From the NCBI RefSeq assembly GCF_053078305.1, contig NZ_CP166879.1: DNA of 64,000 nt. One strand, given 5' to 3'. Both the position numbers and the translations under genes were made by a program. Shown here piece after piece: positions 3,096-38,692 of the stretch. The notes under the pieces were generated by a model, which ran no database searches, had not been told where the DNA came from, and saw nothing but the letters and a program-made list of their open reading frames with translations. Every line of letters begins with the position of its first letter. The stretch's first letter is position 1.

Positions 3096-3743
3096 TTACC
3101 AGACGGGCATTTCGTCTTGCAGGAAGGGATTATGCAGGCGTTCATAACCAAGTGTGGATAATGGTCCGTGACCCGGAATAAATGTCACGTCATCCCCCAG
3201 TGGCAGCAATTTATCTTTGATTGAAGAAATCAGTTGATTATGATCGCCACGCGGGAAGTCACTGCGCCCTACTCCGCCTTTGAAAATAACATCGCCAGAA
3301 ATCAGCAGCTTTGCCCGATCATCAAAAAACACGACATGACCCGGCGTATGCCCAGGGCAATGTAACACCTGTAAAGTCACATTCCCTATGCTGATGGTAT
3401 CGCCTTCTTTCAGCCAACGATCTGGCGTCAGCGGCTGACACTCTTCCAGACCAAACATACGACTTTGCGCAGGCAAGCCTTGCAGCCAGAACTCATCTTC
3501 TTTTTCCGGGCCAAAAACCGGCACGCCGTAATGTTGCGCCAGTTCCGCCGCTGCGCCAACGTGGTCCAGATGACCATGCGTCAGCAGGATCTGCATCAGT
3601 GTCAGGCCGCTGGCATCAACTTCCTGTTTGATTTTTTCCGCATCGCCGCCAGGATCGACCAGTGCGGCCAGTCGGGTTTGTTCACACCAGATCAATGAAC
3701 AGTTCTGGGAGAATGCGGTGACCGGAATAATACGATAGTTCAT
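3096..3743 (-). CDS. gloC: Hydroxyacylglutathione hydrolase GloC (YcbL), metallo-beta-lactamase fold
   Basis: 215-aa ORF with THGHLDH metal-binding motif; position after aspC. Confidence 0.9.
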
Positions 3744-13074: not shown

Positions 13075-13856
13075 ACTTTATCCTTGCTCTGCGGTTTGCG
13101 CGCGGTGACATGAATATAACGCCCCAGGGTAATATACGGTTCCTGACGGCAATAACGCGTTTCTAATTCAAGTAATGCTTCATAGCAGTCGCGCTGCTGG
13201 TGCTTCTCGCGCAGATAATCATGAAACACGCGAACGCCTGTCTTACCCATAATTTGCCAACCAGCTTCTTCCAGCCACAGATAAACCTGCGCCGGGTCGC
13301 GTGGATAATCTGGCGAAAGCGTCCGTTTTTTCTTTTTCGGCATTCCCGCCTGCACGTAATCAAAATTCCCGGCGACCATGTTATGCATCAACAAACCATG
13401 CGCATTGTAGAACATTAACGACAACACGCCGCCTGGACGCAACACTGACCACAGGGTCTGCAATACGCTGCGGGGATCAGCCACCCACTCGAGCACCGCA
13501 TGGAACAATATCAGATCAACGGGCGTTTCCAAATGCGAAGCAACATCCTGAGCGGCGCAATGTATAAATTGCATGTTGTCGCTCACACCTTTTGCTTCTG
13601 CCGCCTGTTTTGCGCGGTCGATCATCTGCGCAGAAAGATCGCATAAAATGACCTGATGCCCGCGCTCGGCCATTTTGATTGCGGTCTGCCCTTCTCCACC
13701 GCCCGCATCCAGCACACGCAGTTTTTGCGGACCCATTTCCGCCAGCACGCGATCGAGATCCTGCCACAGAATAGCCTGTCGAAGCTGCCCTTTGGTGGTG
13801 CCGTAAATGTTACGGGAAAACTTTTCCGCAATATCATCAAAATTGCGATCCTGCAT
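13071..13856 (-). CDS. cmoM: tRNA cmo5U34 methyltransferase CmoM (SmtA), SAM-dependent
   Basis: 261 aa from MQDRNFDD; SAM-binding motif VLDAGGGEG; 4-nt overlap with mukF. Confidence 0.9.
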
Positions 13857-13991
13857 TGCTTTCTCCACCGGTTGGCTAAGACGTTTTCTGATAAAGACGC
13901 TATTTTGTCACAGCCACGGCGAGAATGAACCCGTCTGGTGTAATATCGCTGGCGATCCCTTGCTATATGGTTAAAAAAGGAACCAGAAAGG

Positions 13992-14771
13992 ATGCTTTTT
14001 ACACTGAAAAAAGTGATTGGCAATATGTTGCTGCCACTTCCGCTGATGTTGTTAATTATTGGCGCTGGCCTGGCGCTGCTGTGGTTTAGCCGTTTTCAAA
14101 AAACCGGGAAGATTTTTATTAGCATTGGGTGGCTGTCACTCTTGTTATTGAGTTTGCAACCGGTAGCCGACCGCCTGCTGCGTCCCATCGAAAGCACCTA
14201 TCCGACATGGAATAATTCGCAAAAAGTGGACTATATCGTGGTGCTCGGAGGTGGTTATACCTGGAACCCGCAGTGGGCACCGAGCTCTAATTTAATCAAT
14301 AACAGTCTGCCACGCCTGAATGAGGGTATCCGTTTATGGCGCGATAATCCGGGTTCAAAACTGATCTTCACGGGAGGCGTAGCAAAAACCAATACGGTGA
14401 GTACAGCGGAAGTAGGTGCCAGAGTTGCGCAATCGCTGGGCGTACCGCGCGAGCAAATTATCACCCTGGATTTGCCAAAAGATACCGAAGAAGAAGCTGC
14501 GGCAGTGAAACAGGCGATTGGTGACGCCCCTTTCCTGCTGGTGACCTCCGCATCACATCTGCCGCGGGCGATGATCTTTTTTCAGCAGGAAGGGTTAAAT
14601 CCGCTACCAGCCCCGGCGAATCAGTTGGCCATCGACTCGCCGCTTAATCCGTGGGAACGGGCAATCCCTTCTCCGGTCTGGCTGATGCATAGCGATCGTG
14701 TTGGCTATGAAACGCTTGGCCGCATCTGGCAGTGGCTGAAAGGTCCGTCAGGCGAGCCACGGCAAGAGTGA
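13992..14771 (+). CDS. elyC: Envelope biogenesis factor ElyC (YcbC), DUF218 family
   Basis: 259-aa ORF with N-terminal transmembrane segment; conserved position. Confidence 0.85.
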   Translation: MLFTLKKVIGNMLLPLPLMLLIIGAGLALLWFSRFQKTGKIFISIGWLSLLLLSLQPVADRLLRPIESTYPTWNNSQKVDYIVVLGGGYTWNPQWAPSSNLINNSLPRLNEGIRLWRDNPGSKLIFTGGVAKTNTVSTAEVGARVAQSLGVPREQIITLDLPKDTEEEAAAVKQAIGDAPFLLVTSASHLPRAMIFFQQEGLNPLPAPANQLAIDSPLNPWERAIPSPVWLMHSDRVGYETLGRIWQWLKGPSGEPRQE

Positions 14772-15641
14772 TTTTGATGCCAGATCGAAGTTGCGCCGAC
14801 TAAATCGTCCGGTATTAACCAGTTGCGCAACTTCATCCCATAACACATACAACCAACGCCGCCAGATGAACGACTCCGCCACTGGCGCGCGTTGCAGGTA
14901 ACTCCAGAGCAAATCTTCCGCCAGAGAATTATCCATTAGTCGGAACAGTTCGTATTCTCGCGGTGCCCAAAGCATTAGTCCCGGCCCGACCATCGCCAGT
15001 AACTGATCGCTGCGCGAATCTTTCAGCATGCTGCGTAAACAGAAGTTACCGTGAATCAACACACAATTGTCGTTAAAGCCTTCAAATAATGCCGGGAGAC
15101 ATTCGCGAGTGCGAAACAGGATCCGCTTATCCTGCATCGTCAGACCGGTGTTATTGAACTGATTGAGCGTGGTCCATAGCACTTCAACATGTTGCCGGTA
15201 CCATGAGGGCCAGAAATTTTCCTGAGTATTGTCGACCGCGCCGACGCAACCGCGACTGTCCTGACGGTGCCAGGCCAGTAAGGCTTCAACGATTTGGTCT
15301 TTGAGCTGTTCCCAGCGTTCTGGTGTTCGGGCTGGTGCCTCCACCGAAACACCACGCATCCGCTCCAGTAGCAGGACATCAGGGCCGGGGTGTTCTTCAT
15401 GCGTCATCACACCATAAATAGTCGGCATACGGACAGTCCCACTTCTTGCCAGCATGGTGGTTTTCCATGCCAGTTGTCGGGCTTTTCCGGGCGTACTAAA
15501 GCTTCTTGCCATTAGCGGCATTGGGTTTCCCTGGCTGTCATACAAAGCCCACAACGCCGTATCCGCTTTTTCATTGACGCACTCAATACGACTGAGTTTT
15601 TCGCCCAGTAAATGGCTTAATTCGGCACGCAGCTGTTCCAT
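14748..15641 (-). CDS. ycbJ: Putative phosphotransferase/kinase-like protein YcbJ
   Basis: 297-aa ORF; 3' end overlaps the elyC 3' end by 24 nt (convergent). Confidence 0.85.
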   Translation of the reverse strand: MEQLRAELSHLLGEKLSRIECVNEKADTALWALYDSQGNPMPLMARSFSTPGKARQLAWKTTMLARSGTVRMPTIYGVMTHEEHPGPDVLLLERMRGVSVEAPARTPERWEQLKDQIVEALLAWHRQDSRGCVGAVDNTQENFWPSWYRQHVEVLWTTLNQFNNTGLTMQDKRILFRTRECLPALFEGFNDNCVLIHGNFCLRSMLKDSRSDQLLAMVGPGLMLWAPREYELFRLMDNSLAEDLLWSYLQRAPVAESFIWRRWLYVLWDEVAQLVNTGRFSRRNFDLASKSLLPWLA

Positions 15642-15794
15642 TCAGATTACCCTCATAAAAGCTACTGCTTTCATAATGAGCGCCAATATAAAAGATGTCA
15701 CCTGAATGAGATCAATTGTTGAAAAGAAAAATTGAGGAAAATCGTAACGGTACGACACTCCTCCCAAAATTGGCTGGAGTGTCGTGAAGTGAAA

Positions 15795-16720
<926 letters not shown>

Positions 16721-37096: not shown

Positions 37097-37261
37097 TCCG
37101 CGCTGCATAAATAATTCAGAGCTCTATTTCTCACGCCCTTACAGCACAGCTTCCAAATGTATTACCCAAACCGCCAGTATATGTCCTGCGGCTTGCGCGC
37201 ATTTCTCGATTATGTAAAAACGGGTCAGATCTGCCAGAGTCAGCATCACCGACCACAATAA

Positions 37262-38692
37262 TTATTTACTATTCGCTTTACGCGCCAGCAGCGGGAATAT
37301 CAGTCCTAATCCTACCAGCACAAACGGCGTTGCAACATTCAGCGCCAACTGGAAGGTCCACTCTGCAGTGAAGGCTTCCATTTTCGGGAAGATCCCCGTC
37401 AAACAGGCAAAGGCGGTAAAGGCAAAACACCAAATCCCGACGGTCATTGCCAGAGGCTTATTACGAATAAAGACATATTCTGGTTTATATTTCTGCGCCA
37501 GGCGAACGACTGCAATAAATGCAACAAATACCCATAAATAACGCAGCGGCATCACTACCGAGTTAAGATTCAACAGCCATTTATAGAGATTGTTCATATC
37601 ACCGATGCCGAGAGTCGGCAGCATAATCAGAATTGCCACCAGCACCAGGGTCAGAAAATAGCCATTAACGGGCGTACCAGAAGCGTTGGTACGACATAAA
37701 CTGGCTGGAATATATTTGCTGTCAGCATCACCTAATAGCACTTTAAGCGGGGCATCAATCGAGAATACCAGCGCAGCTACTTGTCCCAGGGTATTCGCAA
37801 TGGCGTAAATCACCATTAAAGTATTACCCATGTTGTAATACTCGCCCAGCTTCTGAAAAGCGTAATATTGACCGTTAGTCATTAAGTCATCCGGGATATT
37901 ACGCGAGTCAAACATCATCCCCATCGCCAGTGAGCCCAGAATGGCACAAACCGCAACCATCACCGCCAAGCATAGCATCCCTTTTGGAAATTCTTTTCCT
38001 GGGTTGCGCGTTTGATTAACGTAAGGAGAAATCTTCTCTGCTCCGCCAACCGCGAAAACCAGCATTGAAATAGTGGTAATGTAGGTAAAGTCGATATGAG
38101 GAATGAACGTTTCCCAGGTAATGTTTGTGGTCGCAATATGCACTTCAGTAATCGCAGGCGCGGTTACCGCCATCGCCACATACAGGAGCGACATAACAAA
38201 CATCGCAATCCCTGCCACAGAACCGACGATTTTCAGCGATTTCATACCGCGTGAAGCAACCCACATAAAGAAGATAAACAGCACCAGCGTTAACCCCTGT
38301 AACGCTACGACTGAATATTCTTTGATTAGCGAACCGTCGCCTTTCATCGCCCAACCGAGCGCAATCAGTATTGCCTGGGGTTTTTGTGCCAGATAGGGAA
38401 TATGCACCACCCAGTAGGTCCACGCGGCGAGGTAAGCCAGTCCGGGTCCCATCGTGTGTTTAATCCAAGTACTGACCCCGCCTTTCCCATCTTTGAAGGT
38501 CGAGCCTAACTGACCAACAATTAGCGCATAAGGTGTGAAATAGAGCGCAAAGATAAACACCCATGAAAAAACAACCACCAGCCCCTGGTTGGCATAGTTA
38601 TTAACAACGTTGCCAAAACCCCAGACAGTGATAAAAGACATCAGCGCAATGTTGTACCATCGCAGCTGTTTTTCCTGAACATTCCCAGCCAT
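37262..38692 (-). CDS. ycaM: APC-family amino acid transporter YcaM
   Basis: 476 aa from MAGNVQEKQLRWYNIAL; polytopic membrane protein; the ORF-track start is 64 codons longer. Confidence 0.85.
   Translation of the reverse strand: MAGNVQEKQLRWYNIALMSFITVWGFGNVVNNYANQGLVVVFSWVFIFALYFTPYALIVGQLGSTFKDGKGGVSTWIKHTMGPGLAYLAAWTYWVVHIPYLAQKPQAILIALGWAMKGDGSLIKEYSVVALQGLTLVLFIFFMWVASRGMKSLKIVGSVAGIAMFVMSLLYVAMAVTAPAITEVHIATTNITWETFIPHIDFTYITTISMLVFAVGGAEKISPYVNQTRNPGKEFPKGMLCLAVMVAVCAILGSLAMGMMFDSRNIPDDLMTNGQYYAFQKLGEYYNMGNTLMVIYAIANTLGQVAALVFSIDAPLKVLLGDADSKYIPASLCRTNASGTPVNGYFLTLVLVAILIMLPTLGIGDMNNLYKWLLNLNSVVMPLRYLWVFVAFIAVVRLAQKYKPEYVFIRNKPLAMTVGIWCFAFTAFACLTGIFPKMEAFTAEWTFQLALNVATPFVLVGLGLIFPLLARKANSK

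Follow-up and report, generated by a model that had tools for sequence, protein, structure and literature searches.

The genes elyC and ycbJ face each other tail to tail, and the last codons of one are written on the opposite strand of the last codons of the other. Does this shared segment serve a purpose, be it in gene expression or in coding, or is it a tolerated by-product of the way elyC came to end within its neighbour? We addressed the question starting from a 64,000 nt stretch of contig NZ_CP166879.1 (RefSeq assembly GCF_053078305.1), referred to as the window in the following.

Geometry of the overlap

In the window elyC is located at 13992-14771 on the plus strand and ycbJ at 14748-15641 on the minus strand. 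According to the sequence and a mechanically derived list of open reading frames, the two share a 3' segment of 24 nt on both strands (14748-14771, TCAGGCGAGCCACGGCAAGAGTGA), which contains seven codons and the stop of each gene. Read on the plus strand it encodes S-G-E-P-R-Q-E-stop (ElyC residues 253-259), on the minus strand S-L-L-P-W-L-A-stop (YcbJ residues 291-297). Both frames are exactly antisense, with codon position 1 facing position 3 and position 2 facing position 2. Hence each TGA stop is the complement of a TCA serine codon of the partner. The elyC stop (14769-14771, plus strand) corresponds to YcbJ Ser291, as tabulated by codon for the 82 loci described below, the ycbJ stop (14748-14750, minus strand) to ElyC Ser253, and the latter stop is TGA in all 82 loci. 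A second in-frame TGA one codon past the elyC stop (14775-14777, plus strand), the complement of the TCA codon of YcbJ Ser289, provides a back-up stop in E. coli.

The identity of the two genes is supported by their reading frames, Pfam, NCBIfam and the RefSeq annotation. ElyC (259 aa) is an envelope biogenesis factor with a DUF218 domain at residues 80-231 and matches the NCBIfam equivalog NF007794 over its full length (1-259 of 259, E 1e-153). YcbJ (297 aa) belongs to the YcbJ family phosphotransferases with an APH-like fold; the Pfam APH match covers residues 64-249 and the NCBIfam equivalog NF007890 spans the entire protein (1-297 of 297, E 1e-171). No sequence relatives of ElyC or YcbJ were found in the PDB. 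The gene names, the position and the length of 24 nt given in a preliminary description of the locus are exact by the list of reading frames, the sequence and the NCBIfam equivalogs. A shorter true stop of either gene, which that description had considered as a way in which the overlap might vanish, does not apply, as both stops are the first ones in frame and are conserved in orthologues. elyC and ycbJ are a convergent (tail-to-tail) overlapping protein-coding pair in all three respects by which the class is defined.

Among six convergent neighbour pairs annotated across the region of the window, elyC-ycbJ is the only one with overlapping coding sequences. Two further gene ends were noted on the way. 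For cmoM, which is divergent from elyC, the start is ambiguous: the longest reading frame begins with GTG at 13868 (minus strand, 265 aa), the RefSeq annotation at 13856 (261 aa). A remnant of a LysR-family gene, annotated without its N-terminus and known as ycaN in K-12, lies in the region 37151-37264 and ends with TAA at 37259-37261. This stop directly abuts that of ycaM (complement of TTA, 37262-37264), resulting in a convergent pair with a gap of zero. ycaM-ycaN is likewise part of a published list of E. coli excludons (PMC12288877).

Conservation in E. coli and in the Enterobacteriaceae

The RefSeq annotation of K-12 MG1655 (NC_000913.3) places ycbJ at 971752-972645 (plus strand) and elyC at 972622-973401 (minus strand), and thus contains the identical 24-nt overlap. 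This pair (b0919/b0920) is the same locus and shows no structural difference from the window. E. coli XH990 (NZ_CP019359.1) is identical to the window over 13900-15800, and RefSeq annotates the 24-nt overlap there too. Outside that segment, XH990 differs from the window at the start of the latter and runs out of register beyond about 40000. The overlap is also retained in the RefSeq annotation of the most divergent E. coli variants sampled. Of 5426 complete E. coli genomes, 5425 contain a 44-nt stretch that encloses the overlap; 1292 genomes are identical to the window in this stretch and 4122 fall into the band of 95-99% identity. Just upstream of the overlap, residue 252 of ElyC is Pro in the window and Ser in K-12.

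For a survey of the family, one genome per species was scanned with ElyC and both stops were located in each of 82 Enterobacteriaceae loci. The overlap measures 24 nt in 71 of them, 21 nt in 8 and is missing in 3, and it never exceeds 24 nt. Loci with 24 nt include Escherichia, Salmonella, Citrobacter, Klebsiella, Enterobacter, Raoultella, Kosakonia, Kluyvera and others, while the eight loci with 21 nt comprise Buttiauxella, Yokenella, a Cedecea species, S. enterica subsp. arizonae and a few more. The preliminary description had suspected conservation in E. coli and proposed a comparison with the K-12 annotation; the guess was correct, yet it understated the depth, since conservation reaches beyond the species to the family. 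Its expectation of low novelty holds as well, the overlap being present in the K-12 annotation and in two papers.

In this register antisense stops arise exclusively from the sense codons TTA, CTA and TCA, which make up 15 of the 298 codons of ycbJ. An open antisense run of seven codons is therefore expected, and the length of the overlap by itself is unremarkable when compared to chance. Its persistence across genera is beyond chance. Four-fold degenerate sites in the flanks of the overlap are near saturation, yet a longer overlap does not occur in any of the 82 loci. The upper bound of 24 nt shows selection on the length of ElyC, whose end is accordingly not wholly free.

Two strains with a peculiar locus are worth recording. 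In Escherichia albertii NBRC 107761 (= DSM 17582; locus L006, positions 3271-3273) elyC contains an in-frame amber codon at codon 91, which is Trp in E. coli; the remaining reading frame and the 24-nt overlap are intact. The amber codon in this type strain is either a sign of a recent pseudogene or a sequencing error. In E. coli R9 (NZ_CP107164.1; locus L093, from position 2597 onward) a ~38-kb block interrupts the locus 8-14 nt downstream of the elyC stop, corresponding to 14779-14785 in the window. The insertion site is located inside the last codons of ycbJ, leaving elyC intact and displacing the 3' end of ycbJ. The insert begins with a small gene of a recombinase family and phage tail-fibre genes; it separates the halves of the locus by ~38 kb, and the same 7 nt (GCCAGAT) occur at either side.

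YcbJ is the dominant reading frame

The YcbJ tail SLLPWLA is near-invariant. All 82 loci encode Pro294 and Trp295, Leu is found at residues 292, 293 and 296 with occasional exceptions of Ile or Val, and Ser291 is present in 75 of 82. The ElyC tail (SGEPxQE) varies where YcbJ codons change synonymously. For instance, CTC, CTT or CTG at Leu296 of YcbJ result in Glu, Lys or Gln at ElyC residue 255. Altogether E, K, Q, D and N are found at residue 255, G and R at 257, and E, Q, K and D among others at 258 and 259. Column entropy within the overlap peaks at third positions of YcbJ codons, and its mean is lower than in the flanks. Because the variation tracks synonymous sites and third positions of YcbJ, the ElyC tail is mainly an antisense passenger and YcbJ the dominant frame.

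The position of the elyC stop behaves differently from the tail sequence. The Ser291 codon is TCA in 73 of 82 loci, compared to a nearby serine at the variable position -9 with 8 TCA, 10 TCG, 4 TCT and 1 AGC. In two of the three Citrobacter loci that lack the overlap, the Ser291 codon has drifted to TCG and TCT. Moreover, all lineages in which Ser291 is replaced (by Asn, Gly or Ala) exhibit TTA or CTA at Leu292, so that elyC stops one codon earlier. The TCA bias at Ser291 together with TTA or CTA at Leu292 leads us to conclude that selection acts on where elyC stops, and mostly not on the sequence of the tail. Two further sites stand out: YcbJ codon 297 ends in C in each of the 82 loci, and CCC and CCG are the sole codons used for Pro294. 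The ElyC frame or the RNA may hence add some constraint in the overlap beyond what YcbJ needs.

Origin of the overlap and its loss in Citrobacter

YcbJ belongs to a very narrow family. Of 1.84 billion cluster representatives searched exhaustively, 201 match at E <= 0.001 and 45 at E <= 1e-30, mostly fragments of close relatives and very few full-length proteins. In a word-indexed protein search with YcbJ, all 120 matches listed are close relatives, and outgroups are absent among the matches listed. Of the informative contigs, one of Cedecea/Dryocola type (73% identity) shows the 21-nt overlap. On a Plesiomonas-type contig (42% identity; the cluster includes proteins of Plesiomonas shigelloides) ycbJ and the DUF218 gene are convergent and separated by a spacer of 30 nt, and ElyC is shorter, ending in ...WLTLKGKH. 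The spacer is filled by a perfect 12-bp hairpin (GGAATAACCGC...GCGGTTATTCC; L086, positions 2020-2070) that includes the ycbJ stop. By its appearance this hairpin may act on transcription from either side, as a terminator or a pause element, and would have been lost in the Enterobacteriaceae. A relative with 33% identity has a spacer of 107 nt and a fragment with 57% identity a spacer of 14 nt; next to a relative with 44% identity the DUF218 gene is absent between ycbJ and cmoM.

As the convergent pairs of the outgroups have spacers, the convergent arrangement is older than the overlap. The overlap itself looks derived: once the spacer and the old stop had gone, elyC would have grown at its 3' end by about eight codons. 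This direction of evolution rests on few outgroup loci, one with a taxon via a cluster of 90% identity and the others metagenome contigs.

The reverse step is seen in Citrobacter youngae, C. werkmanii and Citrobacter sp. wls619, where elyC and ycbJ are separated by gaps of 93, 58 and 117 nt, respectively. REP-like palindromes (GCCTGATGGCGACGCTGACGCGTCTTATCAGGCCTAC and relatives) make up the inserted DNA. In these three species ElyC has the C-terminus WLKGxEH and YcbJ still SLLPWLA. Since the three species exist without the overlap and without the ElyC tail, neither is indispensable.

Transcript ends, terminators and RNA structure

Owing to the coding overlap, a full-length mRNA of either gene runs at least 24 nt into the partner, and the 3' ends are mutually antisense. 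The preliminary description had pointed this out; it follows logically for any pair of full-length mRNAs and agrees with the listing of the pair as an excludon (PMC12288877).

A pattern scan for intrinsic terminators (G+C-rich stem-loop with U-tract) found none at 14700-14850 for either gene end. What is present is a weak, imperfect inverted repeat (14725-14767) with arms at 14725-14737 and 14755-14767, which are 85% complementary and separated by a 17-nt spacer such that the ycbJ stop lies in the loop. The repeat is followed by only four T, leaving the terminator pattern incomplete. Its consensus fold across 78 loci keeps 6 pairs with -4.8 kcal/mol and zero compensatory changes, and the core TGGCT/AGCCA coincides with Trp-Leu codons of ElyC WQWL and YcbJ LPWL. 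On the minus strand the fold at the overlap is no better than that of shuffled sequences (z = +0.8). With six invariant pairs and no covariation, a conserved RNA structure across the overlap was rejected.

A perfect 10-bp inverted repeat (GAAGTTGCGC / GCGCAACTTC, 28-nt spacer) lies at 14787-14834 within ycbJ, 16 nt downstream of the elyC stop. The repeat is restricted to the E. coli lineage and no run of T follows. Due to this repeat, the plus strand of the elyC 3' region inside ycbJ folds better than shuffled sequences in E. coli (z = -2.9). A conserved structure in that region was considered and rejected as well, since the repeat is not conserved and the consensus of 78 loci contains zero pairs. 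Rfam gave no match at E <= 1 in 13800-16000.

Published Term-seq data of K-12 were mapped onto the window. A Rho-dependent termination region lies inside ycbJ at K-12 972120 (plus strand in K-12; PMC7815308, supplementary file 2), corresponding to about 15273 on the minus strand of the window and about 370 nt after the ycbJ start. This suggests that much of the transcription entering ycbJ falls short of the overlap. Further upstream, the primary 3' end of the kdsB transcript (K-12 971644; PMC7815308, supplementary file 1) maps to about 15749 on the minus strand. Inspection of the sequence places it 5 nt after an 8-bp hairpin, and it separates kdsB from ycbJ. Apart from the Rho region at 972120, the Term-seq tables contain no 3' end at K-12 971700-973400, the overlap included. 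A candidate promoter upstream of ycbJ (sigma-70-like -35/-10 match GTGACA, 17 nt, CATTAT; 15673-15701, minus strand) was noted; promoter-like matches in the region are no more numerous than in shuffled sequence. Because a canonical terminator or conserved RNA structure is missing at the junction, the 3' ends of both transcripts are probably set by Rho, by collision of polymerases or by RNA processing.

Alternative explanations

Could the overlap be maintained for the sake of expression? One such reading takes it as a regulatory excludon, in which transcriptional interference and/or dsRNA cut by RNase III causes expression of one gene to lower that of the other. ycbJ-elyC is indeed one of the 165 convergent excludons that ExcludonFinder identified in MG1655 from transcripts overlapping in at least 50% of 58 RNA-seq samples (PMC12288877). 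Overlap and gene order are also maintained throughout the family, and no terminator separates the genes. However, the listing needs nothing more than overlapping RNA-seq coverage, which a coding overlap guarantees, and the main text of PMC12288877 gives neither reciprocal expression nor RNase III data for the pair. Furthermore, the cost of damage to two reading frames accounts for the conservation equally well, and spacers take the place of the overlap in the outgroups and, with REP elements, in three Citrobacter. We thus regard regulation of this kind as unlikely. An even stronger version, with the overlap as a selected, family-wide coupling device that renders expression of the envelope factor ElyC and of the orphan, kinase-like YcbJ mutually dependent via polymerase collision or RNase III, appears quite improbable to us. 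If it were true, the elyC stop would be hard-wired in a serine codon of YcbJ, and this would explain the length of 21-24 nt across the Enterobacteriaceae.

A related reading assigns the region the role of a bidirectional terminator of the collision type, with a pause hairpin used from both directions. Such terminators have been described at convergent pairs, e.g. ynaJ-uspE, and need a hairpin and no U-tract (bioRxiv 10.1101/2022.10.23.513370). Like these, elyC-ycbJ is a convergent pair without canonical intrinsic terminator and with an inverted repeat at the junction; the repeat straddles the ycbJ stop, a core of 5-6 bp is found in nearly all loci, and a strong hairpin occurs at the equivalent place in the Plesiomonas-type outgroup. 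Unlike ynaJ-uspE, the hairpin is weak, lacks covariation and is explained by coding, namely by invariant Trp-Leu codons on both strands. Given in addition the low consensus energy, the minus-strand fold and the lack of 3' ends at the overlap in the Term-seq tables (PMC7815308), we consider this role very unlikely. Alternatively, the seven residues at the end of ElyC might be functional, which would amount to true dual coding with selection in both frames. The pattern S-G-x-P-G/R persists and the elyC stop is tightly held in position. In addition, the constant C at the end of YcbJ codon 297 and the avoidance of CCA and CCT at Pro294 keep Gly/Asp/Ala and Gly/Arg, respectively, in ElyC. Against this, residues 255, 257, 258 and 259 vary freely, the tail is located outside the DUF218 match and it is absent in the outgroups as well as in the three Citrobacter species, so that dual coding also seems a rather improbable reason for the overlap. 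As for an annotation artefact, with one of the frames not translated to its annotated end, we found no support: stops are read mechanically and starts alone are open to annotation choice, both reading frames match their equivalogs end to end, the first in-frame stops are conserved across genera and few parts of the region are as well conserved as the YcbJ tail. There is hardly any chance that the overlap is an artefact.

A probable origin by 3' extension

The explanation we favour, and hold to be highly probable, is a real and anciently fixed tail-to-tail overlap: the 3' end of elyC would have moved into ycbJ, and the arrangement was then locked in as a tolerated by-product. Judging from the outgroups, the two convergent genes would at first have been separated by a short spacer, with a shorter ElyC that stopped some two residues past the motif W-L-x-L-K-G. 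The ancestor of the Enterobacteriaceae would have lost both this spacer and the old elyC stop. Translation of elyC would then have proceeded through the antisense of the ycbJ 3' end up to the first antisense stop, the complement of the Ser291 TCA codon, or, in the 21-nt lineages, the complement of the TTA or CTA codon of Leu292.

This scenario resembles a model that PMC3887535 attributes to Kingsford et al. 2007, in which a gene is extended at random at its 3' end as far as the next stop and so comes to overlap a convergent neighbour. As in the model outlined there, the genes are spaced apart in the outgroups and their ElyC is shorter, the added part runs up to the first antisense stop, and the tail is poorly conserved. 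Unlike in the neutral model, the elyC stop was then held fixed across a whole bacterial family. Both features tested for 3' extension, i.e. non-overlapping outgroups with a shorter protein and a tail that behaves as a passenger, are found here. Compared to the other convergent excludons of MG1655, of which ycbJ-elyC is one of 165 pairs with overlapping transcription, the arrangement differs in that most of them overlap in their 3' UTRs only, with a mean intergenic distance of 95 nt (PMC12288877), whereas here the coding sequences overlap. The overlap as such is already known. It is stated in a recent study, which attributes the phenotype of a ycbJ deletion to inactivation of elyC (bioRxiv 10.1101/2025.02.11.637708). 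What is added here are small increments: the conservation throughout the family, the derived origin, the stop codon lock, the reversal mediated by REP elements and the absence of a conserved RNA element.

Taken together, the overlap of elyC and ycbJ is real but ordinary and raises no major question. Its main value is one of caution, as neither gene can be deleted or tagged at its 3' end without also touching the partner. The standard Keio deletion design is said to keep the last six codons and the stop, 21 nt in total. If applied unchanged, each deletion would remove exactly the stop of the partner: 14769-14771 in the case of the ycbJ deletion and 14748-14750 in the case of the elyC deletion. 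Rather than a purpose-built regulator, the overlap is most likely a low-cost, locked-in by-product. In this respect the locus represents a clean small example of how 3' extension creates a convergent overlap that subsequently becomes frozen, and the REP insertions of Citrobacter provide a natural reversal.
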